Source of the DNA: a virus
Taxonomy: Duplodnaviria; Caudoviricetes
DNA: 60,175 nt
Strand: one strand, 5' to 3'
Virus record (IMG/VR): IMGVR_UViG_3300037424_000199
Coordinates: 1 to 60,175 of that record
Of this stretch, positions 24,624-56,074 are shown piece after piece; the stretch's first letter is position 1; every line of letters starts with the position of its first letter. The notes below the pieces were generated by a model that was not told the origin of the DNA, made no database searches, and saw only the letters and a program-made list of their open reading frames with translations. The position numbers and the translations under genes were made by a program.

Positions 24624-25109
24624 CTATGAAACGCGAGCTATAGCAGCAGGAACAACAGACGGAGACGGAGAAGCTGCTGCTGTTTTAGCATCAGTAACGA
24701 TAGTCTGTACTTCAGGTAATGCAATCGTCGCTGCAATCAAAGTATTCTTAGCCTCAACACTAGCAGGAATGCTAGGGTCTTGAGCAATTGCGCTTGTTGC
24801 CTCTATTAAAACTTTCTGCGCGCTAATCGCTGCTGAGCTAGATGGCCCAATCGCAATTGCTTGAACTTGTGCAATCTGATTAGTTGGGCTAGCACTGCGC
24901 AATGCTTGAATACCACCATAAACTACGCCAATAGCTCCTATTAACTGGATAAGAGCATTAACAGTAGCCCCCATGCTCTCTATGGCTACCTTAACGGCAT
25001 CCATATTTACACCCTTAGCTTGCAATCCAAAAATAGTAATTGCAACTCCTATAGCAGTACCAACATGGCGAGTAGCAGCGTCAACTTCAGATTTAGTTGG
25101 CAATCTCAT
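24624..25109 (-). CDS. Membrane protein, holin/antiholin-like
   Basis: Two TM segments; adjacent to endolysin. Confidence 0.5.
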   Translation of the reverse strand: MRLPTKSEVDAATRHVGTAIGVAITIFGLQAKGVNMDAVKVAIESMGATVNALIQLIGAIGVVYGGIQALRSASPTNQIAQVQAIAIGPSSSAAISAQKVLIEATSAIAQDPSIPASVEAKNTLIAATIALPEVQTIVTDAKTAAASPSPSVVPAAIARVS

Positions 25110-25123
25110 ATTGTAAAATCCTT

Positions 25124-25912
25124 TTAAGCCTCGTTAGTTGAAATTTTTCCGTTACTCGTTACTAAAGGTAATGACTGCAAACCAATATGATTAGGAGCAC
25201 TAACACTGCTAGGCCACCAAAAGCCTTTATTCAAACGACTTACAGGAAACGGTATAATACTGACTTTATCGGATTGATTTCCGCCTAGCCCCATAATATT
25301 CCCATGTTGGTCCTTGCCCACAACTACAATGACGTGTCCCCCGCCATTGCGAAGCATAGGAGCAAACGCGCCCACTGCCGGACCATTTAGCCTAACTGAT
25401 GGCCATTTGCCAGCAAAATCTAGAGCCCAAAGGGTTTCAGTTCCCTTTAGCCCAACTTTAGTTAAAATATGATTGGCGAAAAGCGCGCACCATGGAACGC
25501 TATCGTGAGTATAAGTTTCGCTTATATCCCCGCCTTCCTCTTTAGCCCAATCAATAATAGATTGATTGTCCTTAGAGCCAATGATTTCTTTAGTGCCAAC
25601 TAATTTAATACCAGCTTCCAACCATAAAGGACGATTAATTTCTGAATGCTCAATTGTGGGCAAAGCATTTTCTAATGGAGCAGCGTCGATAGCTTTAGCT
25701 GTCAATGGCCCTATTTCACCATCAGTAATAAGCCAAGCACGACGCTGAAATGCTTCAACAGCAGTATCAGTAGCAGAACCAAAATAGCCAGTACCTTTTA
25801 ATTTGTATCCCCTTTTAGCTAATTCTAACTGAGCTAGCTTAACTAAGTCACCACTCATTCCCATTTTTAAAGTAAGAGAAGGCTTAGAAATTTTATCGGA
25901 TAAAGTTGGCAT
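25124..25912 (-). CDS. Endolysin: peptidoglycan-binding domain + TIGR02594/NlpC-P60-like amidase
   Basis: LKMGMSG..V...Q..L...GY...G.FG..T..AV..FQ...DG.IGP.T; VPWCALF, GGGHV, LGGNQSD. Confidence 0.85.
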   Translation of the reverse strand: MPTLSDKISKPSLTLKMGMSGDLVKLAQLELAKRGYKLKGTGYFGSATDTAVEAFQRRAWLITDGEIGPLTAKAIDAAPLENALPTIEHSEINRPLWLEAGIKLVGTKEIIGSKDNQSIIDWAKEEGGDISETYTHDSVPWCALFANHILTKVGLKGTETLWALDFAGKWPSVRLNGPAVGAFAPMLRNGGGHVIVVVGKDQHGNIMGLGGNQSDKVSIIPFPVSRLNKGFWWPSSVSAPNHIGLQSLPLVTSNGKISTNEA

Positions 25913-25925
25913 TAATATATCTTTC

Positions 25926-28900
25926 TTATGGATTGAACGAAACCCATCCAGCGCTAGGTCTAGCATCTGCTGCACGACTAGCCCCGGCAGGTTGACCATT
26001 TAAAACTAAATTAGTACTACAGCCATTTTTTACAGCGTCATATATAGCAAAATTACCAATACTATTAGTTGCTTGTAATTGCACTAAATTAGTACACCCA
26101 TTTCCACCAGTAGCATGCATAACAGTCGCCGAATGCGTAGCAGTGGTCATGTTGATATTTATACCTGTAGTAATAGCTTCAGTATGAAAACCATCTAATG
26201 TTATTTGACCACCTATCATATTTACAGCATTTCCAGCATAAGTTCCTTCTGATACAGTATCATAAAATTTTAATAAGGTAGTTCCTGCATTTAAAACTAT
26301 GCCATCACTATTAGCAGTAGAAAACATAGTACAAAATAAATTATGTGATGTGAATAAAGCTGCGCCACCGTAGCCTGTATCGTATCTAAAACAACCACGT
26401 TGGCCGCCATAGATAGCTACATTACTAATAGCTCTAAGTTGCTGAGCAGCGTTAGTATATAGCATGTAAGTGCCAGCATTACCAGTAGGCGTAATAGTGG
26501 CCGATAATCCTACATCTGCTATCTGAGCGCCAAAACAAGCTATTTGTGAATTAGGATCGCATAACGTTACAAAATTAGAACCTCCTCCAATACCAGCATC
26601 GCACATATGAAGTTGCGAATTTACTGGTCCTTGTCCTCTAAGCTGAGTACCTCCGTAAATAGTCAATGCGCTACATACCATAGCTACACCCTTAGGAAGC
26701 AACACAGCAGTAGACGCCATTGGTCCTCCATTGGTTGTAAAACCATTTATAGAAGGAAGATAGGCAGCATAATCAAGAGCAGCTTGGATAGCTGCAAAAT
26801 CATTGGTAGCAGAACCATCTACTCCTAGCCAATCAAATACAGCGCCGAATTGTCTAGGATCAATAAAGTTATCAGAAACATACTGCCACTTATTACCCCC
26901 TGCATCAGTAAAGCTAGCTCTAACAGTAGTAACGGTTGCTACTGTAAAAGTAACAGTAGTAGAGCAGCCGGTAATGGTTGCTGATAGAACATCTCCGACA
27001 GCATAACCATATCCACCAGCATTAAACGTTTTAGTAATAGCAGAGACTACATTAGCTGTTACAGTAACGTTAGCCATAAAGCCAGTGCCGACACCGCCAG
27101 AAAAAATAGTTCCTCTATAGGTTCCATTAGTACAACCTGATGTTCCGTTATTTGAAATAGTCCCTGATGCTACGTTTTGATCTAAAAATTCTCCTGCTGC
27201 TTTTCTATAGAAAGTAGCTCCTCCACCGTCTGTAGCGGACGCATATCCTAATGTTTTTATAGCATTAACATTAGTTAAATCTAAAGCTGCCGCTGCGGTT
27301 CTAGTTTGAACAACTAAAGATGTTGGGGTAGTCCAAGTTTGAGTAGTAGGAACTAACTGGCTAATAACTGTAGTACCTGAGCCGGAAGGAACACAGCCAG
27401 ATAATGCACCTGTAAAAATATTACATGATGCTGTAACTTGAGTAGCAGTTACAATTCCTTGATTACCTCCAACACTAACAACACCAGCTTGAGCAGCAAA
27501 TTGAAGCCACACTAAAGGATCAGTGCCAACAGTTGTTACAGTAGCTTGTAATACCCAGCTAGTACCAATATTAGTAGAACCTGATGTGATAAGAGTATAT
27601 GAACCTGCTGTCATCTCAGCAGCTTCATCAAAATAAGTAGCTCTAGTTAAAACCCAAGGTGCAGCACCGCTACCAGCGTCAGTTACCGTATAGATGCCAT
27701 TTTGAAAAGACGATGCTTGGTCTTTAACAAGCACAACAGTGCTTAATGGCGCTGCTGTTCCGTCTACAGTTAAAGTTGTATTAGAACCTGCTGTTAATGT
27801 AGCTCCTACACCTAAAGCTCCATTAGAATATGTAGGAGTATTTGGAAGCACAGCCGCAGTTGCTAAAGCAGATTGAGCTAAAATATTTAATCCAGTAGCA
27901 ACACTATCAACATAAGCTTTAGTAGCAGCATCGGTAGGATTAACAGGAGCGTTAAGATCAGTAATAGAAGTAGCCCCTCCCGATACAACTATACCAGCAC
28001 TAAATGTTTGTTCTGCTGAAAAAGTATTAGCTGTATTTAAAAGTGGGACAGTATTGCCGCTAGTACCAATGTTAGCTGTGCAAGCTGTCCCAGCATCAAT
28101 TAGATTAGAACAACGAGCAATACTCAAATTAACATCAGGAGCTATTTTAACAATATAGTTTATAGTTTTAGATGGCTGAATGATAGAAAATGGAACTGCT
28201 GAATAAATAATATTTAAAGTTCCTGCGGTTCCTCCTCCACCAGTAGTAGAAGCAGGATTAGTAGGAACCACAGAACATTGGCCCGCTGTTACTAATACAG
28301 GATCGGTAATAGCACCAGCTACAATGGTAACGTTAAATTGTGGTTGAGTAGTACAAGTTCCTCCTGATACGGTTAGTAATTGCGTTCCAGCAGTATAGCC
28401 AGAACCGCCAGCAGCTACAGTAGCACTAACAGCAATACCCCCAGTATTAGCAGACACTGCAATAGCTTGCGCTGCATTTGTGGAAGTTCTAGCTGCTAAC
28501 GTAGTGGTTGTGTTTCCAAATTGACCAAACGCGCCACCTGCCGCATTAGATGACACTAAAGCGGTAGTTGCATTTGGTATTTGAGTATCAGTAGTTGTGA
28601 CGCTAATAGAATTGGCGCCAGATGAACTTACATTAGGAAGGCTGGAAGAAATTAAAGTTTTTGATTGGCTACCACCGTTACCAGCTAAAGAATTCGGATC
28701 GGTATAAAAAGATACCGTCAAATTAGCTGAGCTAGAACCTCCCATATTATTTCTACCGGGAAGCACAACACCACGTAAATCGGGAGCATTAAAAGTAGTT
28801 AAACCATTACCATTGCCCCACGGAAAGAAAGTACTAGTAGTAGTAACAGAAACAGTTGCGTTAGAACTAATAGTAACCGTAGTAGAAGTTTTAGAAATAA

Positions 28901-29510
28901 CTGTAGAGCCAGCAGTAATACAAGCTGCTTCTACTGCTGCTCCAACGTTTATTTGAGTAGTGTCACTAACATTAGTTAAAGTAGCATTTCCACTGATACA
29001 AGTAATATTTTGAGTTAAAGTTATAGCACTAAGCAATTGTGAATATGTAGTTCTATCTAGCTCTTGCCCATAAGAAAAAGCATAATTAGCAGGAGCTACA
29101 AAACCAGACCAAGGCAAAACACTACCTACAGCCAACCCATCTCCTACTGTAATACTACCTGAGCCTCCAGCCCCAGCAGATGAAGTATTTTTATCCCATT
29201 GGATATTATTATTACGATCTTTTACAACCTGACGATAAGAACCATTTCCTAAAATCAAAGCTCTACCAGCAGCATCCAATACAACAGGATTGGTATTTAA
29301 AACTGTAGCATCCGCATCTTTCCAAGTTGCTTTGCGAGTGCTGGTGCTCGGAATATAAAAATCTACAGTTCCAGACGTTAAAGGCTTTCCATTTCTATCT
29401 AAAAATGTAGTCATAGCTGGCGGTAAAATCGCCGCGTTCTGAGCATACGCAAAGTGAACTTGCGCAATTATAAGCGCAGAAAGAACGAAAGTTTTAAAAA
29501 TGGAATACAT
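25926..29510 (-). CDS. Tailspike/tail fibre (head-binding domain, tail-collar domain, beta-helix depolymerase-like C-terminus) with N-terminal signal peptide
   Basis: MYSIFKTFVLSALIIAQVHFAYA|Q then FLDRNGKPL...NTNPVVLDAAGRA...GSYRQVVKD; TTFNAPDLRG collar; DAATKAYVD; DPRQFGA...NDFAAIQAALD. Confidence 0.85.
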   Translation of the reverse strand: MYSIFKTFVLSALIIAQVHFAYAQNAAILPPAMTTFLDRNGKPLTSGTVDFYIPSTSTRKATWKDADATVLNTNPVVLDAAGRALILGNGSYRQVVKDRNNNIQWDKNTSSAGAGGSGSITVGDGLAVGSVLPWSGFVAPANYAFSYGQELDRTTYSQLLSAITLTQNITCISGNATLTNVSDTTQINVGAAVEAACITAGSTVISKTSTTVTISSNATVSVTTTSTFFPWGNGNGLTTFNAPDLRGVVLPGRNNMGGSSSANLTVSFYTDPNSLAGNGGSQSKTLISSSLPNVSSSGANSISVTTTDTQIPNATTALVSSNAAGGAFGQFGNTTTTLAARTSTNAAQAIAVSANTGGIAVSATVAAGGSGYTAGTQLLTVSGGTCTTQPQFNVTIVAGAITDPVLVTAGQCSVVPTNPASTTGGGGTAGTLNIIYSAVPFSIIQPSKTINYIVKIAPDVNLSIARCSNLIDAGTACTANIGTSGNTVPLLNTANTFSAEQTFSAGIVVSGGATSITDLNAPVNPTDAATKAYVDSVATGLNILAQSALATAAVLPNTPTYSNGALGVGATLTAGSNTTLTVDGTAAPLSTVVLVKDQASSFQNGIYTVTDAGSGAAPWVLTRATYFDEAAEMTAGSYTLITSGSTNIGTSWVLQATVTTVGTDPLVWLQFAAQAGVVSVGGNQGIVTATQVTASCNIFTGALSGCVPSGSGTTVISQLVPTTQTWTTPTSLVVQTRTAAAALDLTNVNAIKTLGYASATDGGGATFYRKAAGEFLDQNVASGTISNNGTSGCTNGTYRGTIFSGGVGTGFMANVTVTANVVSAITKTFNAGGYGYAVGDVLSATITGCSTTVTFTVATVTTVRASFTDAGGNKWQYVSDNFIDPRQFGAVFDWLGVDGSATNDFAAIQAALDYAAYLPSINGFTTNGGPMASTAVLLPKGVAMVCSALTIYGGTQLRGQGPVNSQLHMCDAGIGGGSNFVTLCDPNSQIACFGAQIADVGLSATITPTGNAGTYMLYTNAAQQLRAISNVAIYGGQRGCFRYDTGYGGAALFTSHNLFCTMFSTANSDGIVLNAGTTLLKFYDTVSEGTYAGNAVNMIGGQITLDGFHTEAITTGININMTTATHSATVMHATGGNGCTNLVQLQATNSIGNFAIYDAVKNGCSTNLVLNGQPAGASRAADARPSAGWVSFNP

Positions 29511-29634
29511 ACCTTTAATCCTATTAGCTCTCTTAATTTTTAAATATCGCAACTATATCTGGATGCCCACATTACTCATTTTAGTTGCTTACGCAAAGTT
29601 TAAATTGTATGATCCTATTTCACTTCAAGTAAAA

Positions 29635-37547: not shown

Positions 37548-38792
37548 TTACACCTTATCAGCAACCACGCAAAGCCATTCCGGCCGGATGTATTTAAATC
37601 CGAAAAGAACGTCAACGCGAGTAGCTAACTGATCAGTAAGAGGAAGATAATCAGTCAGAACGCGCATGCTGACGCCATCGTAATTGGTGCGAGCCGCTTC
37701 TTCAACTGCCTTCTTTGGCATAACCAAATCAGCAGTAGCCATCGTAACTGCCTTCTGAGTATAGGCAAGCGACTTACGATAGACAGAAGAAGCAGGAGTA
37801 ACCAGAAGCATAGCTGCACCATTAATAGGCGAAGCATCAACAGTCTGATACTGCTGCTCAGGGCCACCAGCAACGCCAGTAGTAGACGGAATTAAACCGG
37901 GGTAAACTGGAATTAAAGTACCGCCATTGGCAACGTCAGCAGTTACAACAAACTGACGGAGTGTACCCAAGGTTTCCTTGGTAACACGGTTAACAGCGTT
38001 AACATCTTCAAAGGTGATAATATCACCCTGCTTAAGCGTCCCAGTAATAGCAGTAACTAGAATATTACCACCGCTAGTAGAAGTAGTCTGTCCACCACCA
38101 GAAACCGTAGCAGCATTATCATAAGTACCAGTAGTATGCTTAATGACGGTCTGATCACGGAACCAACGCGCATAACCCAAACCAGACTTCATCTTACCAC
38201 TACGAAATTGCGCAGAGATTTCAGGGGTAGGGTTGAGCAATCCAGAGAGTGACGTGGTAGTACGAGCGTCCGTAGTAGGATCATTAACGACGCGGCGATC
38301 CATATCATCCGCGCCCTGATCATCGAGCACAGCATTGGCCTGTAAAAACTGCTCAGCGGTAGGAGAAATAATATTGCCCCCGCCGTCAAGGCTCTGCACC
38401 AGATTACAAACACCACCCTCAGAACCGCGCATAATGGTTGAAGCAACCTTACCACAGAGAGCGTTAACCATAGGAGCCATAACAAGCTCTGAATAACGGT
38501 CAATGCTCATAGTGCGCTCAGCAGTGGTATAGGGGGTAGCAACATTCTTCTGACTAGAAACAGTCAGAGAAGTATACTGCTGCGTATTGTCCTGAAGCTG
38601 CATCGCAGGGCCATCAGTAACAATAAAATCAGACGGCAGACGAATACGAAGCGTATCGCCAATCTTTGCGCCGTCAATAGCAAACTGATCATCATACTGA
38701 GTATCCATGTTCATAATGAACAGGTTACTATTCTTAAATAACATCACTGCTTCAGCAGTGATCATATCAATAGTGAGATAAGTATTGGCCAT
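37548..38792 (-). CDS. Major capsid protein (P22 gp5 coat family)
   Basis: MANTYLTIDMITAEA...YDDQFAIDGAKIGDTLRIRLP...RVDVLFG...IRPEW; GGGAG RBS. Confidence 0.92.
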   Translation of the reverse strand: MANTYLTIDMITAEAVMLFKNSNLFIMNMDTQYDDQFAIDGAKIGDTLRIRLPSDFIVTDGPAMQLQDNTQQYTSLTVSSQKNVATPYTTAERTMSIDRYSELVMAPMVNALCGKVASTIMRGSEGGVCNLVQSLDGGGNIISPTAEQFLQANAVLDDQGADDMDRRVVNDPTTDARTTTSLSGLLNPTPEISAQFRSGKMKSGLGYARWFRDQTVIKHTTGTYDNAATVSGGGQTTSTSGGNILVTAITGTLKQGDIITFEDVNAVNRVTKETLGTLRQFVVTADVANGGTLIPVYPGLIPSTTGVAGGPEQQYQTVDASPINGAAMLLVTPASSVYRKSLAYTQKAVTMATADLVMPKKAVEEAARTNYDGVSMRVLTDYLPLTDQLATRVDVLFGFKYIRPEWLCVVADKV

Positions 38793-39010
38793 GTTAAATA
38801 AGCTCCCGCGCGCAATGGCGCACAAATTGATTGATGTATGTGAATTGCTGGTGCTTGAGGCAGCAAATTTACAAGCAATCAATGGCCTACTTGACCGGAC
38901 CAAGGCGGGATATCTTAAACATGGTTTGTCTAGCGAACCAAGAAACGCTTATGCCCACACTCAATACCAAAGTGTGGGCATCCGTCAAGCGAGATTTTAA
39001 AATTTATTCG
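38793..39010 (-). ncRNA. Candidate structured leader of the capsid gene
   Basis: 218-nt gap with stems 38951-61/38971-81 (11 bp), 38826-33/38876-83, 38845-50/38861-66 and 38890-95/38984-89. Confidence 0.5.
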
Positions 39011-46403: not shown

Positions 46404-47792
46404 TTATAGACTACCCATCCACGATCTATTCTGTTGCCCTATCGGCAAATTAGGCCCAGTGAGTTTAGGCTTTTTACTATCAGCTTCAGTTTTTAAAGAT
46501 AATGCAAAAGTCTGAAAAGCGTCTGCCCCATGGCTCCAAGGTGTATCATGATCCGGTTCGCGTGAAAAGCTTCCTGTTTCTTCATTAACTTTATAGGCAT
46601 AGCGGGAAAGACACTGCCAACCATCAGCAGTGTTAGCTTCATCAAAGTTGCAAAGTTCAAAAATTGTTCTAGCTGCATTGATGCCCACAACTTTCTTTGA
46701 GGGCCGGTTAACAACTACAATTTTAGAATTTGGAAAAGCCTTTCTAGTCATGCTAGCAATAGACCTAGCAGCTAATGTTTCATTATCAGCATCATGAGGC
46801 TGATACATAACCGAATAATTATAAGGTTTGCTTCTCAATATTTCATGATAGTGAGGAAGTTTCTTAAGTCTATTTTCATAATAATCAATAAGATTAAATT
46901 CTAAGCCTGAGCGCTGAATAAACCATATAGCAGTCTTATCAGAATGTCCCAAATCCCATGCGAGAAAAACAGGCTTAGTTGGATCATGAGGAATACGCTT
47001 ACGCCTACCATCAAGCAAAGTTTGTCTGATTTCGTCAGCATAGATAGCCCCATCCAAGGTTTGCTTAGTAAAGCCTTCCCAAATTTCTAAATATTTTTGT
47101 TCATTGTGAACTTTATCCAAATTCATTTGCTGGCGTAAATCAGGAGGAAACCAACGATTATCCGAATAATTAATTTTAACTACATAAGCATAACGCTCCA
47201 TTTCTCCTGTAACTTCATTGACTAAGTAATCAGGAGCATTCTTATCTTTATCAATAACGAAACGCTTATAAGTTTCATCGTCATCTAATTCAGGGTTAAA
47301 TGTTATCCAAACTTCAGGACCTTTTTTAAATGGTCCACCCATACCATTAGGATCAGTCTCATGCTTACCACGAATTGTAGGCATTAACTTATCCCATGAT
47401 GTTTTAGAAACGTTATTAGCTTCTTCTACCCAAGCAATGTCAATTTTAGCAAGAGACTTAATAGAATTAATTTTATAGCGGAGTCCTGAAAAAATAAATC
47501 TAGAACCTGTGCGAATACAAGTAATAGACTTATCTTTAATATCAAATTCATTTTCTAAATCATAAAGAGCTATGTAACTTTCAATTGTTTCTTTAACACT
47601 TTCCTCAATAGATTGCTGAATTTCGCGCAAGCATAAAATGCGCAATTTCATCTTAAGAGCTAGAATAATTAAAGCTATGGCATAGCCATCCGTTTTACCG
47701 CCACCGCGACCGCCATACGCAATCTTTAAACGGGCAGGTTCAAATAAAAATTCTAATTTTTCTAAAAATTCTATTTCCAAAAGTATCACCAA
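46404..47792 (-). CDS. Terminase large subunit (PBSX-like)
   Basis: YGGRGGGKT, LREIQ.SI.ESV, WVEEA, FNP, WDLG..D.TAIW, SHGADAF. Confidence 0.93.
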   Translation of the reverse strand: MVILLEIEFLEKLEFLFEPARLKIAYGGRGGGKTDGYAIALIILALKMKLRILCLREIQQSIEESVKETIESYIALYDLENEFDIKDKSITCIRTGSRFIFSGLRYKINSIKSLAKIDIAWVEEANNVSKTSWDKLMPTIRGKHETDPNGMGGPFKKGPEVWITFNPELDDDETYKRFVIDKDKNAPDYLVNEVTGEMERYAYVVKINYSDNRWFPPDLRQQMNLDKVHNEQKYLEIWEGFTKQTLDGAIYADEIRQTLLDGRRKRIPHDPTKPVFLAWDLGHSDKTAIWFIQRSGLEFNLIDYYENRLKKLPHYHEILRSKPYNYSVMYQPHDADNETLAARSIASMTRKAFPNSKIVVVNRPSKKVVGINAARTIFELCNFDEANTADGWQCLSRYAYKVNEETGSFSREPDHDTPWSHGADAFQTFALSLKTEADSKKPKLTGPNLPIGQQNRSWMGSL

Positions 47793-47799
47793 ATTTTAA

Positions 47800-50307
47800 T
47801 TATGGCACCGCGCTCTGATCCGTCTGCATTGTGATCGTGAACGTCGGCGGCGTCGTCATTCCACTGAAGTTGCCTCCAGTCCACGGATTAATGTTTGCCG
47901 GAACCCACACTGCATTTGGCGGATACCCACCAGTCAGAGGAGAGCCCGAGGGGGCCGAGATTGTATCTCCTGAACACCCTCCGGGGGAGCCGTTGCAGGT
48001 CACCCCACCGGGTGTGATGACGCGAGTTCCCGCCTGCTTGAGGTTGATAGTAGGCCAAAATCGAAATTGTGTCCATGTGGATTGATCAACCGTTACTCCG
48101 CCACCACTGGATGAGAATTGCGCAGTCGGATTTAGGATAGATGTTCCGGTACCGACAAATGGCTGCGTGACATCAATTGTGAGACTAACGAATTTGCCAT
48201 AAGCTGGCATCGTCGCTTGCTGTGCGACCGACGATGCCGTGAACGTACGAGTGATGTACTCGGCTAACGGAGCACCCGAAGTAGCACCAGCTTGAACGCT
48301 CATACCAACAGCGTTCGCGTCACCTGTACAATCATCACAAGTAAACGCTGGGGAGCCCAGCACCCTGAATTGGATTGGGTTTGCCGACAGTGCACTAAGG
48401 TCCGGGAAGCCGCCCGAGGCATTGGTTTGCATGTAGGTGTTACTGGTGCCCCATTCCAGCGACTTAGACGACGCAGATAGCGTTGTTGAGGCCGCATCAA
48501 AAACAACCACATTCTGCGCGTCTGTGAACGCAGTGATGAAGGTTTTTAGATTGGTGCCACCACTGCCTGCCCCGGGAACAATGATGACCCTACCAACATC
48601 ACCAGACGCAAAAATTGGCGTGGATACTCCAAGATTTTTAGAACTACTAGAAATGGTGACGTTCGTAGTCGCTGTTTGCCCATCGACCGCTGGCCATCCA
48701 TCACCTGTGACCGTCGATATGTCCCACATTCCAGCTGAGAAGTATCCGGTGGTTTGAAAAAACAGCCGTGTGTTTGGAATAAATGGCCGTTGCCCTTCAG
48801 ACAACGAGTTCGGCATTGTGATCAATCCACTGGCCATACTATAAGGCCATATGGAGTAGATCATCGGATAACCAAACTGCGTATTTATCGTGGTGATGTT
48901 GCAACGAGTGCAACTCGACGCCCCGGCAGTATTGCCGTAGGCAAAGAACCCGGGCCCCCAATTGTTTAGAACGCTGTCACTGATTTCGGTACGTTTTGCT
49001 CCGCCATCTAGCCTGTTGGTGACGGTAGAATTTCGCATGATAAATAAATCGGTGGAAGAGCTTTGAAATATGATCTGCGCAATTGTCACTCCATCCATTA
49101 GCATGGTTCCAACCAGTTTGTCGGTTTCCATGTTCACATTTATAAAAGTAGTATTGATCGCACTCCATGTCTCGTTTTGGCTTGGAATAGCGCTCTGCGC
49201 ATTGCCAAACGTGACATCGCGGAAGGTTACGTTTCGTGCGTTTGCGTAGGTCTGCCCATCTTGGTTTATCGTCAGTCCACGATACTCAACCGTACTATTC
49301 CATGAGTTCTGTGAAGCCCCTCCAACAGCCCAAATTGTCGCGGGTCCGCCCGCGTCAGTCTGATTTGTATTACCAGCATTGTACTGCGCCCAATCACTTT
49401 GGTATGAATTGGTGAGCGACCGATCAAGCGTGATTACACCTGTACCAGCGTCCACTGCGGTGATTTTCCGCCATTCAAAGAAGTTGGAATTTGGGGGATA
49501 TCCGAATGGTGACTGAAAAATCCCTTGAATGTCAAGGCCACCGAGCATCACCCACCGTCCGACAGAAAAGCGGCTGATGTAGCCCGCAGCAAGAGATGTT
49601 GTGGTTAACGTGACTGTGCTAGACCCGGATGACACAGATTGAATACGCGCTGAGCAGCCAGCGACATCAGTAAGTCCTTTGCTGCAAATGCCAAGCCCAC
49701 CAAGTTGGAAGGTTTGTCCGCCCATACTATTTATTGTGGCCCCAGCGCCTTCAACGATTAGGTTGTTGATACCTGCGGCGAACGCGTTAAATACGCTTAT
49801 GTAGTTGAAAGTCCCGTTGCCAAACCAGCAACTTGACCCGTTTGGTATCGTCAAGACAACTTGGTTGGCGGCCCCTTGATTAGCGCGCGCCCAATTGTTG
49901 AAAGTGTCGAAAGCGGCGTTGTCGCTGATCCCGTAGGATATGCTAGTGGACACTACAGAAAGCGTTGTCGTGGCATTAGTGCTCAAGACAACATTTTGAG
50001 CGTCTGTGAATGTGGATATTGTGCCGAAGTAGCGCCCACCACTATTTCCTGCTCCGTTAATGGTGATGTTTTTGCCAACATCGCCACTAGCAAAAGTATC
50101 AACCGTGACGCTAAGGTTCTTCGTTCCAGTGGTTATGCTGGCCGTGCGCGTGACCGTTAGCACATCGCCGTTGCAGGCTGCCCCGCCGTCAGTGACGATG
50201 TTGTAGAATATCTGCGGCGGTCCGGCGTAGGTCTGGAAAATCGCGAACGCCGCAAAAGCTGCGCTAGGGAGTAGACCAACCAGCGCAGCTAGAATAAGCT
50301 TCAGCAT
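47800..50307 (-). CDS. Secreted-type tailspike/beta-helix-like protein with an internal duplicated domain
   Basis: Signal peptide MLKLILAALVGLLPSAAFA|A; 10 Cys; two copies of KNLxV...FASGDVG..I...GAG..G...I..FTDAQNVV. Confidence 0.75.
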   Translation of the reverse strand: MLKLILAALVGLLPSAAFAAFAIFQTYAGPPQIFYNIVTDGGAACNGDVLTVTRTASITTGTKNLSVTVDTFASGDVGKNITINGAGNSGGRYFGTISTFTDAQNVVLSTNATTTLSVVSTSISYGISDNAAFDTFNNWARANQGAANQVVLTIPNGSSCWFGNGTFNYISVFNAFAAGINNLIVEGAGATINSMGGQTFQLGGLGICSKGLTDVAGCSARIQSVSSGSSTVTLTTTSLAAGYISRFSVGRWVMLGGLDIQGIFQSPFGYPPNSNFFEWRKITAVDAGTGVITLDRSLTNSYQSDWAQYNAGNTNQTDAGGPATIWAVGGASQNSWNSTVEYRGLTINQDGQTYANARNVTFRDVTFGNAQSAIPSQNETWSAINTTFINVNMETDKLVGTMLMDGVTIAQIIFQSSSTDLFIMRNSTVTNRLDGGAKRTEISDSVLNNWGPGFFAYGNTAGASSCTRCNITTINTQFGYPMIYSIWPYSMASGLITMPNSLSEGQRPFIPNTRLFFQTTGYFSAGMWDISTVTGDGWPAVDGQTATTNVTISSSSKNLGVSTPIFASGDVGRVIIVPGAGSGGTNLKTFITAFTDAQNVVVFDAASTTLSASSKSLEWGTSNTYMQTNASGGFPDLSALSANPIQFRVLGSPAFTCDDCTGDANAVGMSVQAGATSGAPLAEYITRTFTASSVAQQATMPAYGKFVSLTIDVTQPFVGTGTSILNPTAQFSSSGGGVTVDQSTWTQFRFWPTINLKQAGTRVITPGGVTCNGSPGGCSGDTISAPSGSPLTGGYPPNAVWVPANINPWTGGNFSGMTTPPTFTITMQTDQSAVP

Positions 50308-51263
50308 TATCCACCAATGATCCTGCCACCACCACCGCCAGATGGAATTGTGATAGTGTCTCCGCTATCAAGTGTATTACGTCCCAGATTAAAAGAGTCG
50401 GTTGCGGTCATCGTTCCAGCGCCAGTGGTAGTGATGCCCATGAAGGCTGCCCATGTCGGGGTAGACGTTCCGCTGGATAGGCTTATCGTTGCTGTTCCTG
50501 AGTTTGGAGTGTTGGGCAAAACAAGCATCTGATTAGATGATGTTCCAGTAAGAATTAAACCACCCGATCCTGTGATTGTATTGGTGGCCGATGCCGGGAA
50601 CATTATATAGCTTGATCCATCATCGATAGATATCGATGAAAACGTATTTGCGCTAAAGATGCGAACCCCACCGCGAGAGGTATTCGCGTTGACTGTGAAT
50701 GATCCGAACGTTCTACCACCACCATTGAATTGACGTTCACCTGCGGTGGTTGCGTTGTAGACAATCGGCGCGGTAAAGGTCGAAGCACCATCCAAATTGG
50801 TTACTGTACCGATATCAAATAGAGCACCCGCAGTAGTAGTTGTAAAAGTGAACGTTCCAGAGCCAAGTAGGTATTTCCTAGTCCCACTCCCACTGAGGTT
50901 CATCCCGGTGCCGGACAGGGTGATGCTTGGGTTGTTGACCGAGAAATCTAGAATGCATCCTGTTGTAGATGCAGTGCAAGTACCAGCGGTAATAGATTGA
51001 AACGTTGCACCGTTGATTGTTGCGTCAACAGTAACTGTGCAAGTAGTTCCTCCAACACATGTGTTTGTATTGAAGATTACCGCGTCACCAGACCCCGGCG
51101 CTGTTGCTCCTGTGCACCCGGTATCGGTAGCGCACCACATAGCTGTGGATGTGCTGTCCCAAGTACAGGTCGTGGTGCAAACAGCGAAGCGATTGGCGGC
51201 TTGCGCCTGATCTGGCGCAAAGAACGCGAGCGCAAGAAGGAAAAGACCTAAGAGTTTTTTCAT
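50307..51263 (-). CDS. Secreted-type Thr/Gly-rich beta-solenoid-like protein
   Basis: MKKLLGLFLLALAFFAPDQAQA|A; GAGG RBS; 8 Cys in the N-terminal domain. Confidence 0.75.
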   Translation of the reverse strand: MKKLLGLFLLALAFFAPDQAQAANRFAVCTTTCTWDSTSTAMWCATDTGCTGATAPGSGDAVIFNTNTCVGGTTCTVTVDATINGATFQSITAGTCTASTTGCILDFSVNNPSITLSGTGMNLSGSGTRKYLLGSGTFTFTTTTAGALFDIGTVTNLDGASTFTAPIVYNATTAGERQFNGGGRTFGSFTVNANTSRGGVRIFSANTFSSISIDDGSSYIMFPASATNTITGSGGLILTGTSSNQMLVLPNTPNSGTATISLSSGTSTPTWAAFMGITTTGAGTMTATDSFNLGRNTLDSGDTITIPSGGGGGRIIGG

Positions 51264-51273
51264 GGCGACTGCC

Positions 51274-52326
51274 TCACTTAGAACTGTAGGAAATAGTGAC
51301 ACCAGTCGCGGCTGCTGTATTATCATTATCTGCTAAATTGGCAGTTAAACAAAAACCAATACCGTTAGTGTACGCTTCACCAAACGGACCAATATTGACA
51401 GCTACTCCACCATTGCTAGGTGGAACAGGATAAGTCGCTACAACAGTATCAGAATTGCAAGTTGGAGCAGCGGCAGTATTGTACATCTTAAGATAATATA
51501 GTGTCGCAGTCGTGTTAATTGTGATCATTTTACATAGCGTCCCTACCGAACCTTTAATGCTGGTAGAGTTGGTCGTAGCCGCGCTGAGCGTCTTGGCTGG
51601 AGTGCATCCGCCAGTCGTGCCAGCAGATGGGGTTACTAACCACGGAGTAGTATTAGCTGTGTTACCCGGTTGAACAGTCCAAGTACCACTTTGAGTAACT
51701 GAAGCACTTAAATTTTGCGCATCAAAAGAACCGAAAGACGTACCGTGGCCGGTACCACCAGCAAGGGCGATGACATTTGATGCAGAACTACTTTGATTAA
51801 TACAAGCAGTGTTAACATTAGAACCTACCGTGAAATAGGTGGTTGAACCACCATGTACAATTAACTTACTGGTAGTTGCAGTTGCGGCCCCTGCTGAGAG
51901 CACGCAAGATACATCATCATTTGATGTATTCTGGAATGATACTACTATACCAGCAGGAAGGGCAGTTGACGCGCTAGATGCAGCGGTCGCCGTCAAGGTG
52001 GTAAAGTTGCCGTTAGGTGTAAAATTAGCTACTGGGAGAGGCGACTGGTCCGAAGCGATGACAATCGGAGAAGAGGCCGCCATGGCCGCTTGACCATTAG
52101 CATTACTATTGGCTACATTAACACCAAGATTACCAGAAGCATCCACAACCCAACATCTTGATACAGTAGTATTGTCGCAACCAATAAAGCGGCTATATAG
52201 AACGCCAGCAGCGTCCTTAGCTCCAAATATCAAACCAGCACCTGCCGTAGCACCATAATTATCAGCAGCTAATGCTTGCGATGTTAAACCAGCAAACAAA
52301 GCAAAATAAATAAATAGCTTGCGCAT
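51274..52326 (-). CDS. Secreted-type head-fibre/decoration-like protein
   Basis: MRKLFIYFALFAGLTSQALA|A; NGQAAMAASSPIVIASDQS, TQSGTWTVQPGNTANTTPWLV; C-terminal SAATTNST.IK...YLKMYN domain; 8 Cys. Confidence 0.75.
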   Translation of the reverse strand: MRKLFIYFALFAGLTSQALAADNYGATAGAGLIFGAKDAAGVLYSRFIGCDNTTVSRCWVVDASGNLGVNVANSNANGQAAMAASSPIVIASDQSPLPVANFTPNGNFTTLTATAASSASTALPAGIVVSFQNTSNDDVSCVLSAGAATATTSKLIVHGGSTTYFTVGSNVNTACINQSSSASNVIALAGGTGHGTSFGSFDAQNLSASVTQSGTWTVQPGNTANTTPWLVTPSAGTTGGCTPAKTLSAATTNSTSIKGSVGTLCKMITINTTATLYYLKMYNTAAAPTCNSDTVVATYPVPPSNGGVAVNIGPFGEAYTNGIGFCLTANLADNDNTAAATGVTISYSSK

Positions 52327-52331
52327 TTATG

Positions 52332-52508
52332 TTACCTCAGCATAGGTTGAACGCAACCTGTTGACAAATCAATTGAGCCATCACAGCTACTAGGAGGAGC
52401 GCCACCATTACCATTAGCATCGCCAACATGAAGCAGCATAAAACCACCAGCAGCATAAGCGGCACTTATGCCCACAATAATCAAAAATGCAGCTATAAGA
52501 ATTTTCAT
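52332..52508 (-). CDS. Small secreted peptide, 58 aa, not in the ORF track
   Basis: MKILIAAFLIIVGISAAYA|AGGFMLLHVG...SCDGSIDLSTGCVQPMLR; TAATG overlap with the upstream gene. Confidence 0.7.
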   Translation of the reverse strand: MKILIAAFLIIVGISAAYAAGGFMLLHVGDANGNGGAPPSSCDGSIDLSTGCVQPMLR

Positions 52509-52930
52509 TAGCGATAATGCACGTTGACGATATAAGTTGAAGCAGCGGGGGCAGACGTATCACTATCAGCAATACCAGTGGTAATGCACATGACTATTCC
52601 TACGCCATAAGCATCGCCATTAATATTAGAAACATTAAACCCACCCCCACTAGAGCTAGCTCCAAACGGGATCATATAACGAGCTTGAGGAGTACCAGAA
52701 CCACAAGTAGCTGTTGTAGCATTGTATAGCTTGACGTAAGCTACAGTAGTCCCATTATTGAAAGCATCTACTGAATAGACGTTTCCACCAGTATTTTTAA
52801 TAATAATGGCAGTAGTGTTGTTAGCTGCTATAGTAGACGTGACTTTAATCTTACTATCAGCAGCGAAATTCTGAGCTAATGCTAGATTAGGAAAAGCTAG
52901 CAAAGCTAATAAAATTAAAATCTTTTTCAT
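52508..52930 (-). CDS. Secreted-type beta-sandwich protein, paralogous to the C-terminal domain of 51274..52326
   Basis: MKKILILLALLAFPNLALA|Q; YVKLYN...TC...IP...G.AY..GI..CIT..AD.D. Confidence 0.78.
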   Translation of the reverse strand: MKKILILLALLAFPNLALAQNFAADSKIKVTSTIAANNTTAIIIKNTGGNVYSVDAFNNGTTVAYVKLYNATTATCGSGTPQARYMIPFGASSSGGGFNVSNINGDAYGVGIVMCITTGIADSDTSAPAASTYIVNVHYR

Positions 52931-52979
52931 ATACCACCTAAAAATAGGTATCGGGCCATTTCTGACCCGATAAATAATT

Positions 52980-53381
52980 TTACTTGCTAACCCAATTGGC
53001 TACACCAGCAGCGCTAACGGAATTACATTTATAAATTTTAGTTCCTTGCGCTTGTGAAACTCCAGTAGCTGTAGCAACACTATCAATGGTATCTGTGCCG
53101 TAACCGTAAACCTGTACAGCATCAGCATCAGAATTAACAACCCAAACTTCCAAACCAATAAATCCCTTTGGAAGTCTGACCCCATCTCCAGCCGTAGTTA
53201 CCGTAGAGATAGTATTAACAGCACTATCAAGCTGAGTTGCTCCAGCCTGAGTAGCTACAATACCAGCAACAATACCAGTTCTACCAGAATTTAACTGCTG
53301 AGTAATATTGTTAATATCGCTACCAGCAATTAACTGGCGGCTAGAAGTATACTGAGCGGGAGCGTTTGCAGATAAAGTCAT
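52980..53381 (-). CDS. Putative capsid decoration/head protein (no signal peptide)
   Basis: TQAGATQL...VNTISTVTTAGDGVRLP...VYG..TDTI motif typical of small phage structural proteins. Confidence 0.6.
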   Translation of the reverse strand: MTLSANAPAQYTSSRQLIAGSDINNITQQLNSGRTGIVAGIVATQAGATQLDSAVNTISTVTTAGDGVRLPKGFIGLEVWVVNSDADAVQVYGYGTDTIDSVATATGVSQAQGTKIYKCNSVSAAGVANWVSK

Positions 53382-53425
53382 AAATATAGTTCCTTCTGTT
53401 GGTAAACGTTACTACTTACGATTGA

Positions 53426-53893
53426 TCATTTAAAATTTTTAAGCGCATCAATGATATCTGAATTAGGAGCAAGTATAGCCAATCTGTCATATGCTAGCTT
53501 TGCTTCCTCGTTTTTTCCCAACATAAAACTATATTTTACTTTAGCCTGTAACAAGTCTGTTGCATTAGGATCATATAGTAAACCAATATTTATATAATTT
53601 AATGCTTGCTCACTAGGTGTATCTTTAATTACAAAATAATAAGACGGTCCTAATGCTATACTTCGATTAAGTGAAAACAGCTTAGCTGCTTTTTCAATTT
53701 TAAAAATGTCACGCTGCTGCCAACCTGTTAGATACAATTGGTCTGCTGTTATAGACAAAAGTCCTACTGCCCAAGCTAGACTTAGCCAACTGAGCCGCCA
53801 CGATAGCGACCATAAAGGCAGTAACTGGCATATGTAGCGGGAAGCCAAAGCACGATATGACGATAAAGAATACAAATGCATATTTATAATCAT
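53426..53893 (-). CDS. Membrane-anchored TPR-like protein (start uncertain; overlaps the Wzy_C gene)
   Basis: Hydrophobic segment then ALNYINIGLLYDPN...LGKNEEAKLAYDRLAILAPNS. Confidence 0.6.
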   Translation of the reverse strand: MIINMHLYSLSSYRALASRYICQLLPLWSLSWRLSWLSLAWAVGLLSITADQLYLTGWQQRDIFKIEKAAKLFSLNRSIALGPSYYFVIKDTPSEQALNYINIGLLYDPNATDLLQAKVKYSFMLGKNEEAKLAYDRLAILAPNSDIIDALKNFK

Positions 53894-54746
53894 TATCTGC
53901 TTTCAAGAGCATCAAAATTATCAAAATAAAAGGAGCAACCCCAATTCCTAATTCAAATGTTAATTGTAATAATTCATTGTGGGCATACTCAGCTATATTA
54001 ATACTAGCATCAGAATGCTTGTTATAGTCAGGGAATAAATAAATAAACGACCCTATGCCATGCCCGAATAAAGTTAAACCTGATAGCATATCTAACCAAA
54101 TATACAATCTCTGATATATGCTGCTCATGCTAAAATTAATAAGACTAGCAGCAAATGTTAAACTAACAGCAAGTGATATAGCTGCTAATTTAGATTTTTC
54201 CCAAATCCATAATAAGCCAACTATCAAAAATCCTAAAATAACTGCTCTAGAACTAACCATCAGTCCGGGCAAAGTAACAGGAATAAACCACCAAAGTTTA
54301 TTTATCAATATTAAAATTAAAAGCATTCCTGAAACTTCAGCAAATATATTTGAATTTACAAATAACCCTGAAGGATTGGGGGTATTTTTAAGAACTAAAG
54401 TTTCTAATTGAAAATACTGCAAAACAGCTATTATAGAAGAAACAGCTAACCCTATAGCCAAACCTATAATGATTTTTCTTAAATTTTGTAGCGTATATGC
54501 CCACACAAACACGCTAGCCAATACTAGCAACTGCATCAACTCTAGCGTTCCATGAGGGGACCACAAGAGAGATAAAGCAGCGTAAGATAGAAACACCAAA
54601 CCCAAAATATGAATAATGGTAATTTCTATCTTACACTTTAACAAGAGGACTGGCATTACCAGCCACATGACTGCCCAAGATGTGATTGACGCTAAGCCAA
54701 TCACTCCCGGTACAAAAGCAATCATTATGGCAATGCCTAGCAGCAT
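53709..54746 (-). CDS. O-antigen ligase / O-oligosaccharyltransferase family protein (Wzy_C; WaaL/PglL-like)
   Basis: Many TM helices; GLFVNSN, SSRA, R..IW...FGHGIGSF, AHNELLQLTFELGIG; TAATG coupling to the upstream gene. Confidence 0.85.
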   Translation of the reverse strand: MLLGIAIMIAFVPGVIGLASITSWAVMWLVMPVLLLKCKIEITIIHILGLVFLSYAALSLLWSPHGTLELMQLLVLASVFVWAYTLQNLRKIIIGLAIGLAVSSIIAVLQYFQLETLVLKNTPNPSGLFVNSNIFAEVSGMLLILILINKLWWFIPVTLPGLMVSSRAVILGFLIVGLLWIWEKSKLAAISLAVSLTFAASLINFSMSSIYQRLYIWLDMLSGLTLFGHGIGSFIYLFPDYNKHSDASINIAEYAHNELLQLTFELGIGVAPFILIILMLLKADNDYKYAFVFFIVISCFGFPLHMPVTAFMVAIVAAQLAKSSLGSRTFVYNSRPIVSNRLAAA

Positions 54747-55321
54747 TACTGCACGCGATACCAAGTGGTGTTGGACTGGCGATAAACCCATTCCACACAA
54801 GATGCCCCGCCAGTAGTAACCGGAACAAGCATTGCTGTAGGCTTGTTTAAAACAGTAGTGCCAGAACCAGCAGTAACAGTAAGAGCGGTAACAATCTGCG
54901 TAGTGCAGAGCCCCATCAACTGAGCATCTGTTAGCGCAGTAGACGCCGGGAAAACTACCGTCAAGCCAGCAATGGTAGTGGAAGGCTCCACAATCAAGCG
55001 CCGCTGCACGCCAGTAAGGGTAAGAGTAGCACCAGTAGACGGAGCGTTATACTGATAAGGACCGGCTCCTAGTGACGGGAGCGCTATCAAACCAGTCTGA
55101 GGAGAGGCCCCGCCGCCAATGTTAGTATTGGCAATAATAGTTTCACTGCCAGTCATAGCAGGACCAGCGGCAACGGTATTACTACAATTAGCGTTGGTAA
55201 AGCTAGAGCAATAAGAAGCCCCACCAATGATGGGGAGCCCAAGCTGATTTCCACTAATAGCATTGGCGATAGCAATAGTAGAAACTAAAGCAGCAAATCC
55301 AAGTCCAATTTTCTTTAACAT
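54746..55321 (-). CDS. Secreted-type Ser/Thr-rich protein
   Basis: GAGGAG RBS; MLKKIGLGFAALVSTIAIANA|I; 4 Cys; C-terminal YRQSNTTWYRVQ like phage fibre domains. Confidence 0.78.
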   Translation of the reverse strand: MLKKIGLGFAALVSTIAIANAISGNQLGLPIIGGASYCSSFTNANCSNTVAAGPAMTGSETIIANTNIGGGASPQTGLIALPSLGAGPYQYNAPSTGATLTLTGVQRRLIVEPSTTIAGLTVVFPASTALTDAQLMGLCTTQIVTALTVTAGSGTTVLNKPTAMLVPVTTGGASCVEWVYRQSNTTWYRVQ

Positions 55322-55352: not shown

Positions 55353-56024
55353 TTAACGCGAAACTCCACTTACCAGCTTTAAAGTTACTGGTAGTGAATT
55401 ATCATTAGGCATTTCAGATTTAACATTCGGAGCATTATCAACCACAAGAGGCTTTTTAGCATCAGCCTTAACTAATTTAATAGTTAACTCATTGTGGGTA
55501 AAATTCTTTGTAGAGTTATCAATCTCTACCTTACCAGTAAACCCCATAATATCAGAGTAAAGCTTTAGCGCATTGATGCGCTCCTTAGCTTCAATCGTCG
55601 GGATCATTACCCCGTTTCGCTCAATTTTTTCATCAGCCAGTGCGAGCACCTTAGCTGCGAGTTGTTCCCTGTCAAGAGGAGCCGCACTAAATTCTAAAGT
55701 TTTTAAATAAACGTCCCTTGATGCAATAACAATAGGATCGGTTAACCAGTTAAAACTTGCCCATAATGCTTTGTTGGTATCTTCGCCAAAAACCTTACAG
55801 CCCGCTTCGAATGGATTTTTAGACTTCGCTAATTCAATTCCGAAAGCCTTCTTTAAATTTTCATCGGATTGATATTCTGGAATAGCTTTTTGAATTTGTT
55901 GCTCAGCAGCTACACTACCAGCAGTCCAAGGCGATACGATATCGCTCCAGCCGCCAGAAGGCGCAAAAACATCAGTTTTCGGCTTAGGGTCTACTGTAAA
56001 ATGAAAATCGCTTGCCCAACTCAT
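55353..56024 (-). CDS. Terminase small subunit (putative)
   Basis: First late gene; KERINALKLYSDIMGFTGKVEI resembles TerS C-terminal motif. Confidence 0.6.
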   Translation of the reverse strand: MSWASDFHFTVDPKPKTDVFAPSGGWSDIVSPWTAGSVAAEQQIQKAIPEYQSDENLKKAFGIELAKSKNPFEAGCKVFGEDTNKALWASFNWLTDPIVIASRDVYLKTLEFSAAPLDREQLAAKVLALADEKIERNGVMIPTIEAKERINALKLYSDIMGFTGKVEIDNSTKNFTHNELTIKLVKADAKKPLVVDNAPNVKSEMPNDNSLPVTLKLVSGVSR

Positions 56025-56044
56025 AAGTGAGATACATAGCACAG

Positions 56045-56074
56045 AAAAAAGCCTCCCCGTCAAGGGAGGCTTTC
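56045..56074 (-). terminator. Rho-independent terminator at the early/late boundary
   Basis: gcctccc-ttgacg-gggaggc followed by TTTTTT on the minus strand. Confidence 0.75.

Follow-up and report, generated by a model that had tools for sequence, protein, structure and literature searches.

We have analysed the complete 60,175-bp virus record IMGVR_UViG_3300037424_000199 (hereafter the window), which belongs to a phage of freshwater type, carries direct terminal repeats and has the gene content of a podovirus of the P22/F116 type. Between the genes for its small (TerS) and large (TerL) terminase subunits lies a cassette of genes, six of which encode proteins with an apparent Sec signal peptide, and a leader of the same kind precedes the tailspike, which is encoded elsewhere in the window (Table 1). 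The textbook view of tailed-phage assembly is wholly cytoplasmic. These leaders, and the cysteine pairs that accompany them, point instead to the passage of some phage proteins through the periplasm of the host. The window has no near-identical counterpart by megablast among 50,697 phage records, and the best identity of its TerL to named or cultured phages is 34-41%.

Signal peptides in the cassette and on the tailspike

All six N-termini that an initial annotation had quoted as signal peptides are present, in open reading frames (ORFs) of the minus strand, and all six are flagged by the heuristic used throughout this work. This home-made test for Sec and signal peptidase I substrates considers the charge of the n-region, an uncharged h-region and small residues at -3 and -1, and calls for a short basic n-region and a hydrophobic core of ~8-16 residues, all within ~15-35 residues. 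The seven signal-bearing proteins (the six of the cassette and the tailspike) each have a basic n-region, an uncharged core of 10-15 residues, and Ala at both -3 and -1. Lipoprotein signals were considered for the seven and rejected, as Cys stands at +1 in none. The cassette ORFs score among the best ORFs of all six reading frames, and across the whole genome 9 of 104 greedy ORFs are flagged, the remainder being the tail fibre, a lipoprotein and a small membrane protein; this corresponds to 6 of the 10 genes in the cassette region against 3 of 94 elsewhere. Signals are likewise present by the heuristic in 99 (g350), 98 (g835) and 93 (tailspike) of the best 120 homologues of each, with signal sequences that diverge freely between families and a pattern that is retained. 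As such, the periplasmic routing proposed in the initial annotation is supported by signal peptides conserved in hundreds of homologues.

Related loci were collected by scanning IMG/VR with TerL, which returned 31 loci, many of them short fragments. Homologues of TerS occur at 13 of these, of g133 at 17, of g191 at 11, of the Wzy_C-like gene at 5 and of the small ORF that overlaps it at 4; g140 and g58 have two each (in both cases L028 and L030, with g58 in the same position), parts of g350 are found at three, and g318 and g835 at none. Every one of the 13 loci that hold both terminase genes has 2-8 signal-bearing ORFs (by the heuristic) in the intervening gap, which spans 1,575-9,317 nt. Cassette content differs strongly among relatives, and a common core is kept in nearly all of them, consisting of a g191-type protein, a signal-less g133-type protein and a third, signal-bearing protein. 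The latter is either of the g140 type or a member of a 'QTSRNPCY' family not present in the window, whose mature end is formed by the invariant loop 'QTSRNPCY...NC', with a C-terminus beyond it that varies. Twin-arginine (Tat)-type leaders take the place of the Sec type in two ORFs, L013 8792-9955 ('..KRRDFIK..') and L011 2451-3971 ('..SRRNLIR..'), and we read these motifs as another route of export used at this site of the genome.

The strongest point for periplasmic routing, as far as sequence can speak to it, is the signal peptide of the tailspike, the gene for which lies outside the region that the initial annotation had covered. Its longest ORF is 25926-29552, and AGGA stands 9 nt upstream of the ATG at 29510. 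In Pfam the product scores 35.3 bits for the Collar domain (cut-off 24), and the domain that follows the predicted cut matches 34 cultured or named phage records, annotated tailspikes among them, with 37-47% identity over ~70-80 aa to cultured-phage tailspikes. The gene order is that of PBR31, namely internal proteins, tail spike, holin and lysozyme. The Collar domain, the shared N-domain and the gene position together identify the product, at the level of sequence comparison, as a phage tail fibre or tailspike. An internal start was examined and rejected, since the Met there in the window is replaced by Lys or other residues in all three complete relatives, and no purine-rich stretch precedes the window's internal Met; the hydrophobic leader is kept in all three.

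With residues 1-200 of the tailspike as query, 224 database hits were obtained. The best 120 of these are 716-1640 aa long with varied C-termini, including Peptidase_S74 and pectate-lyase domains. The heuristic flags 93 of them, each with at least one Cys and with a median of 12; in 86 the number is even. Most of the other 27, inspected by eye, carry the segment as well, with a start called further upstream, or are truncated inside it. In the window's tailspike and its best 120 relatives the Sec-type signal amounts to 23-26 residues placed before the N-domain. The Collar-domain tailspikes of podophages such as Shewanella phage X14 and Xanthomonas phage PBR31 resemble this protein in their homologous N-domain, Collar and variable C-terminus, and in a gene that follows internal proteins and precedes lysis genes; they differ in that the cultured proteins start with Met at the domain, whereas here, as in the best 120 relatives, a signal comes first. 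All four of the cultured tailspikes that were opened (PAE2, X14, P26218 and PBR31) have this leaderless arrangement, and their Met lies no more than a few residues from the predicted cleavage site, such that the cleaved tailspike would have the N-terminus of its cytoplasmic relatives.

Cysteine pairs that accompany the signals

The Cys counts given initially for the six signal-bearing proteins (4, 2, 2, 8, 8 and 10) and for their signal-less neighbour g133 (1) are correct, while that of 3 for the coat is not, the longest coat ORF having 5 with a true start that is uncertain. Parity was compared in a pool of the relatives' ORFs upstream of TerL, with near-duplicates removed and restricted to proteins with any Cys. 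The count is even in 41 of 45 signal-bearing proteins as against 44 of 95 signal-less ones (Fisher p 1.3e-7, which is indicative only because the sequences are related). For g835, which has 206 homologues, 90 of the 98 signal-bearing proteins among the best 120 have an even count, and across an alignment of 27 sequences each of its 10 Cys is fully or almost fully conserved.

The g350 family is the most informative in this respect. Behind its signal the protein has a mature N-terminus of Ala-Asp-Asn and a middle domain of cupin/CBM-like type, and it ends in a jelly roll; there are 745 database homologues, all unnamed. Among the best 120, the Cys that remain once the predicted cut is made are even in number in 114, and ~18 are signal-less, start Met-Ala-Asp-Asn or similar, and have 0-3 Cys. 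In the alignment, the signal-bearing mature chain starts Ala-Asp-Asn exactly where the signal-less homologues start Met-Ala-Asp-Asn. Both forms share the 'QSGTWTVQPGNTANTTPWL' motif and a C-terminal domain of ~110 aa, two columns of which hold Cys in the signal-bearing forms and Val or Ala in the signal-less ones. Co-occurrence was counted in an 85-sequence alignment as sequences with both Cys, the first only, the second only and neither: the figures are 7, 0, 0 and 8 for the pair 50/58; 21, 3, 1 and 24 for 141/175; 25, 2, 4 and 49 for 241/265; and 67, 2, 1 and 14 for 290/326. These counts make a strong case that the eight Cys of g350 are four pairs that are gained or lost together, and the initial suggestion of disulfide-type pairs finds its support in this covariation.

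A second IMG/VR scan, with the signal-less g350 forms as query, yielded 293 loci. In the best 80 of these, 26 ORFs bear a signal (Cys even in 20, mean 4.8) and 59 complete ORFs do not (mean 1.8, 20 with zero), a count that leaves out four 5'-truncated rows. The signal-less ORFs among these 80 are up to 2392 aa long, and some of the contigs exceed 200 kb. In three unrelated viral contigs (L053 8001-9340, L068 3900-6196 and L089 1965-2998) the g350-type protein is split into a signal-less ORF of 142-163 aa starting Met-Ala-Asp-Asn and, directly behind it, a signal-bearing ORF with the C-terminal part; read literally, two halves of one fibre-type protein would there be placed in different compartments.

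The AlphaFold model of g350 has a mean predicted local distance difference test (pLDDT) score of 75, with two domains at 84-96. Fold matches of the C-terminal domain in the PDB are the Ena1B subunits of endospore appendages (Z 8.0), the cement protein of phage KHP40 (Z 7.8), nucleoplasmin cores and YomS (Z 6.2); the first PDB match by Foldseek is the PBSX exported protein XepA (E 1e-4, template modelling (TM) score ~0.2), and the matches in BFVD are uncharacterised phage proteins. XepA and YomS (of SPbeta), both from prophage lytic cassettes, the Ena subunits and KHP40 cement thus have jelly-roll folds like that of the C-terminal domain of g350 and g140, without sequence similarity and at a common level of match (Z <=8, whole-chain TM ~0.2), from which function is not transferable. 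The protein g140 is a signal followed by a single jelly roll with 38% identity over 100 aa to the C-terminal domain of g350. Among cultured phages that domain is found only in unnamed proteins of the Caulobacter phages S2B, KSC and Cr30. The S2B and KSC copies (gp004c, L116 5524-6357, and gp046, L117 5575-6360) have no signal and adjoin large terminase or lysis genes, and they could serve as tractable models for the domain.

We therefore regard export to the periplasm as highly probable on the sequences in hand. It is well supported because the signals are canonical and conserved and a second (Tat) signal type occurs at the same site, and because the predicted mature ends appear to coincide with the N-termini of signal-less homologues (in the g350 type and the tailspike) and Cys pairs are gained with the signal.

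Other cassette proteins and the Wzy_C-like gene

Table 1. Features of the window, in order of position from the cassette downward.
Feature	Position	Strand	Remarks
TerS, small terminase subunit	55353-56063	-	PHROG 5334 E 4.8e-12; upstream cassette border
g191	54746-55321	-	signal peptide ..IANA|I; 4 Cys
Wzy_C-like polytopic membrane protein, 345 aa	53709-54746	-	~10 hydrophobic segments
Small overlapping ORF	53426-53893	-	TPR-like at best; true start uncertain
g133	52980-53381	-	no signal peptide; 1 Cys
g140	52508-52930	-	signal peptide ..LALA|Q; one Cys pair
g58	52332-52508	-	signal peptide ..AAYA|A; 39-aa mature peptide, one Cys pair
g350	51274-52326	-	signal peptide ..QALA|A; 8 Cys
g318	50307-51263	-	signal peptide ..QAQA|A; 8 Cys
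g835	47800-50307	-	signal peptide ..AAFA|A; 10 Cys
TerL, large terminase subunit	46404-47792	-	PHROG 3717 E 5e-47, PHROG 2 E 5e-41; downstream cassette border
Coat, longest ORF	37548-38903		true start uncertain; 5 Cys
Tailspike/tail fibre, 1194 aa	25926-29510	-	signal peptide ..FAYA|Q; 18 Cys
Endolysin	25124-25999	-	PG_binding_1 and CHAP domains; no signal or signal-anchor-release (SAR) segment
Holin-like protein, two transmembrane segments	24624-25109	-
Lipoprotein, candidate spanin	24207-24614	-	lipobox ..LSGC; flagged by heuristic
Small membrane protein	3941-4153		flagged by heuristic

The window was annotated by scanning a subset of its ORFs, 20 proteins with Pfam and 30 with PHROG. Beyond the cassette it encodes terminase, an HK97-type coat, scaffold and a portal of 784 aa, together with a head-closure protein and an adaptor that resembles P22 gp4. 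Three genes of ejection-protein size and a fibre ORF of 1208 codons come at the tail end, followed by the endolysin, holin-like and lipoprotein genes. Two of the related loci (L006 7004-10339 and L007 6781-10116) match the portal in two pieces ~960 nt apart, likely through an insertion such as an intron, intein or homing-endonuclease gene. At L026 8825-11290 the TerL ORF is a single open frame of 821 aa. TerL residues 4-49 are matched there by 8825-8965, while the match to residues 34-459 begins at 10001, so that ~345 aa seem to have been inserted in frame, perhaps as an intein. The G+C content of the window is ~49-50% at 48-52 kb as compared with ~36-45% in the rest, and the rise at 48000-52000 coincides with the Ser/Thr/Gly/Ala-rich genes g835, g318 and g350; either the composition of their products or a foreign origin may lie behind it.

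None of Pfam, PHROG and NCBIfam was informative on g191, g133, g140, g58 or g350. The protein g191 comprises its signal, ~60 conserved N-terminal residues that include a Cys-x7-Cys loop, and a C1q-like jelly-roll tip domain. The 19 family members at the relatives' loci, which reach 1286 aa, share the signal and ~60 mature residues with the Cys-x7-Cys invariant, and vary in their C-termini. The model of g191 has a pLDDT of 66 overall and 80-90 for residues 86-191, and their matches in BFVD, at a root-mean-square deviation of 1.4-1.6 A over 103-108 columns and with ~30% identity, include a phage protein annotated 'C1q domain containing protein' and a stretch within a putative exopolysaccharide (EPS) depolymerase of 793 aa from a Klebsiella phage; lower rows include fibre proteins with collagen repeats. 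Judged from this model, residues ~86-191 are a C1q/TNF-like fibre-tip domain. The fibre or tailspike nature that was initially ascribed to the mature parts is thus borne out by fold matches to fibre-tip (g191) and jelly-roll (g350) domains. For g133 there was no Pfam, PHROG or PDB sequence match, and its neighbours in the ESM Atlas are viral hypothetical clusters, one of which has Phage_depo_C on 13% of its members. A domain shared by g133 and g191 was considered and rejected, hhalign of the two families giving a probability of 1%. Sequence-profile searches of the PDB with three family alignments, those of g133 and the Wzy_C-like protein among them, gave no significant match.

The two remaining signal-bearing proteins appear to be beta-helical. 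The ESM Atlas model of g318 (predicted TM score 0.82) is a right-handed beta-helix with beta-helix proteins of Verrucomicrobiota and Lentisphaerota (G8, PATR) as structural neighbours and viral clusters as feature neighbours. The large beta-helix-type protein g835 has no Pfam match, and its match to PHROG 32881 'pectin lyase activity' (E 2e-8) is confined to 65 residues. A profile scan of genome contigs with the g835 alignment found one locus, L118 9872-12163, on a contig of a Bradyrhizobium metagenome-assembled genome (61% G+C), where a 763-aa homologue with 58% identity over 517 aa keeps the signal and lies among one GT2 and several GT4 glycosyltransferase genes. Such a context suggests exchange between phage cassettes and bacterial polysaccharide loci.

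The cassette also holds a gene that the initial annotation had assigned to Wzy_C and taken to be translationally coupled to g191. The coupling is as described, the stop of g191 and the ATG of this gene overlapping as TAATG, and a single shared stop/start base is also found, from the ORF coordinates, at 52508 and at 50307. The family assignment is probable for the phage family as a whole, all five members of which match Pfam Wzy_C (PF04932), the best at E 3.4e-10; the copy in the window itself reaches only 19.3 bits (E 1.1e-3) against a cut-off of 31.7 bits. Neither NCBIfam nor PDB sequence searches gave a match. The alignment has an invariant Arg167, Arg213 and His256-Asn257 motif, and the conserved Arg residues and His-Asn are presumably the catalytic-loop residues of the family. 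In these respects (a Wzy_C match in five of five members, a polytopic protein, conserved Arg and His-Asn) the gene is like WaaL, PglL/PilO and some Wzy proteins, and it is unlike them in its strong divergence, its length of 345 aa, which is short, its presence in a phage and its pairing with the small ORF that overlaps it.

The small ORF was initially called a tetratricopeptide repeat (TPR) protein, a description that is weak, as TPR_2 matches at E 0.065 and 13.8 bits against a cut-off of 27 and NCBIfam gives no match. The two genes overlap by 185 nt (53709-53893) in different frames, an arrangement kept at L003, L006, L007 and L019. From the '..ADQLYL..' segment on, the frame of the small ORF is conserved, while the Wzy tail in the other frame varies, and either a separate internal start or a frameshift fusion therefore fits. 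The overlap may accordingly represent an internal start or a programmed frameshift that fuses a periplasmic domain to the enzyme.

It was further asked whether the signal peptides and the Wzy_C gene go together, and proposed that the exported proteins are O-glycosylated. As to the former, all three complete relatives keep the signal-bearing cassette and the tailspike, and in none of them does a profile search find a Wzy_C-like gene (the window gene, as control, gives E 1e-173). Because the gene is missing where the signal-bearing proteins persist, the enzyme must be regarded as accessory and export as independent of it. The latter proposal is weak: the Wzy_C-like gene is real, but it occurs at 5 of 31 loci and in none of the three complete relatives. 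Glycosylation of the exported proteins is possible, on the basis of gene adjacency and coupling to g191, and the acceptor may be a protein, lipid A-core or a growing O-chain, as sequence comparison does not separate an O-oligosaccharyltransferase from a ligase or a polymerase.

A serious contender, though one that we doubt somewhat more than we credit, is that the gene encodes a serotype-converting O-antigen polymerase or ligase that alters host lipopolysaccharide (LPS) and has no connection to the exported proteins, in which it would resemble the O-polymerases of converting phages such as D3 and epsilon15. Membership of the Wzy_C superfamily agrees with such a role, as does the loss of the gene from complete relatives that retain every signal-bearing protein, and the Pfam and PHROG scans of the window, which did not take in every ORF, turned up no glycosyltransferase. 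The coupling to g191 speaks against it, as does the position of the gene directly behind a g191 homologue at four of the five other loci that have it. Furthermore, no integrase was seen among the scanned proteins (the search was not exhaustive), so that lysogenic conversion is not evident.

Proposed export and docking at lysis, and alternative roles

Given the above, we incline, by a modest degree, to the view that this lineage sends its outer, host-contacting virion proteins, that is, the one tailspike and a changing set of accessory proteins (of fibre-tip, jelly-roll and beta-helix type) encoded between terS and terL, through Sec. Each protein would be synthesised with a cleavable signal peptide, translocated unfolded, and then cut by signal peptidase I, after which it would fold in the oxidising periplasm with structural disulfides. 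Heads and tail machines, made without signal peptides, would meanwhile assemble in the cytoplasm. Upon opening of the inner membrane by the holin the two compartments would mix, and the exported tailspike, and probably some of the cassette proteins, would dock via their conserved mature N-termini, completing the particles. In some members, a Wzy_C-like accessory enzyme would use host undecaprenyl-linked glycan on the Ser/Thr-rich proteins or the envelope. We infer cleavage, disulfides and docking at lysis, the joining of exported proteins to virions at that stage included. That the tailspike would join particles is argued from the tail module, in which no other gene of tailspike type was found. 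An endolysin without an export signal, alongside a holin-like gene, leads one to expect that lysis opens the inner membrane, and mixing at holin action would be the simplest route. Docking at this stage would be comparable to the case of P22, the heads of which can be tailed in vitro with free tailspike. For the cassette proteins, conserved mature N-termini are combined with variable C-termini in the g191 and 'QTSRNPCY' families as in the tailspike, and this fibre-like build argues for attachment to the virion.

A number of points weigh against this view. Export, cleavage, disulfides and virion incorporation are each read wholly from sequence, and the signal-peptide calls are those of our own heuristic and not of a trained predictor. 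Completing every particle only at lysis looks inefficient. The fold matches of g350 are to generic jelly rolls with Z <=8, a range common for the tool, and its domains are therefore read only as 'viral-type jelly rolls'. The signal-less cultured tailspikes hold Cys as well (10, 3, 6 and 12), so that Cys content alone is no proof of oxidative folding, and the covariation of Cys within one family is, at the level of sequence, the stronger argument. In g835 there are two CxxC motifs that metal binding could explain, and its closest bacterial relative lies in a polysaccharide-synthesis cluster, with which a free envelope enzyme fits equally well.

It is this last consideration, along with the variable content of the cassette, that keeps a free envelope role of the cassette proteins alive. 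They could be exported effectors, lectin-like or cutting or modifying glycans, that, along with the Wzy_C enzyme in phages that have it, remodel or strip the surface polysaccharide of the infected cell from the periplasm or from outside, with the tailspike alone needing the virion; surface remodelling was the alternative named in the initial annotation. Superinfection would thereby be blocked, receptors on cell debris destroyed, or progeny released from capsule or EPS. We consider this rather unlikely. The g835 homologue that sits with its signal among bacterial GT2 and GT4 genes would suit an effector, as would the resemblance of g318 to secreted bacterial beta-helix proteins, a content as changeable as that of accessory genes, and a Wzy_C gene in the same operon. 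The best PDB match of g350 by Foldseek, XepA, is described as a lytic-cassette protein with cytotoxic activity, the match being weak (TM ~0.2). However, three families with a conserved mature N-terminus and variable C-termini show the pattern of virion-docking fibres, signal-less homologues resemble long fibre proteins, and the genes are placed inside the late packaging and structural operon, with a core of two signal-bearing proteins and g133 in nearly all relatives. The tailspike itself bears the same kind of signal, and the lineage must therefore bring at least one exported protein to the virion in any case.

That the hydrophobic N-termini are instead uncleaved membrane tethers or timing devices, which keep the proteins at the cytoplasmic face or do not engage Sec, with assembly remaining cytoplasmic, is very improbable: the N-terminal segment of the tailspike is unusually conserved among relatives and large trimeric beta-helix proteins are in general demanding Sec substrates, but all seven proteins have the Ala residues, uncharged core and basic n-region of a cleaved signal, the sequences vary between families with the pattern kept, the predicted cleavage reproduces the N-terminus of signal-less homologues, the Cys pairs are specific to signal-bearing forms, and in at least one relative a cassette ORF carries a leader of twin-arginine type instead, a second way of export.

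Sec export of outer virion proteins would have only partial parallels. The g3p and g8p proteins of filamentous phages are virion proteins with Sec signal peptides, and g3p needs periplasmic disulfide formation; those phages are extruded at the membrane without lysis, whereas the window encodes a tailed phage with HK97-type head, portal, terminase and holin/endolysin. Lambda Lom and Bor and T5 Llp are signal-bearing phage envelope proteins, some of them encoded among structural genes, and these are single small accessory proteins without fibre modules, in contrast to the 2-8 fibre-module proteins and the tailspike seen here. Mycobacteriophage virions have O-linked glycans placed by cytoplasmic phage glycosyltransferases on capsid and tail-tube proteins, whereas the sole candidate here is a putative periplasm-facing Wzy_C-type enzyme. 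In the open-access and bioRxiv literature, which leaves subscription journals uncovered, we found no report of Sec-exported tail fibres or tailspikes in tailed phages, of a DsbA-dependent tailed-phage virion protein, or of a phage O-oligosaccharyltransferase acting on virion proteins.

In its most far-reaching form, which we put forward tentatively and with rather more reserve than conviction, Sec export of these proteins would constitute an obligatory periplasmic branch of assembly, in which the sole tailspike and a changeable set of accessory fibres are exported by Sec (some by Tat), folded with disulfides, in some members perhaps glycosylated by a phage Wzy_C enzyme, and infectious particles are completed only just after holin action; the gain of a signal together with Cys pairs by fibre modules would, on this account, recur in hundreds of environmental phage proteins. 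Signal-bearing phage ORFs are routinely read as morons or lysis genes and so excluded from searches for receptor-binding proteins. The families concerned are large (745, 206 and 224 database hits for g350, g835 and the tailspike) and have almost no Pfam or PHROG assignment beyond the tailspike Collar and one short PHROG match, and the question is therefore directly testable on many sequences. If true, the last step of assembly would take place across the inner membrane or after its breach, and host Sec, signal peptidase and Dsb functions would be phage dependency factors. Disulfides, and perhaps host glycans, could then stabilise receptor-binding proteins once they are outside the cell, which would amount to a widespread and overlooked way of building environmentally tough receptor-binding proteins.

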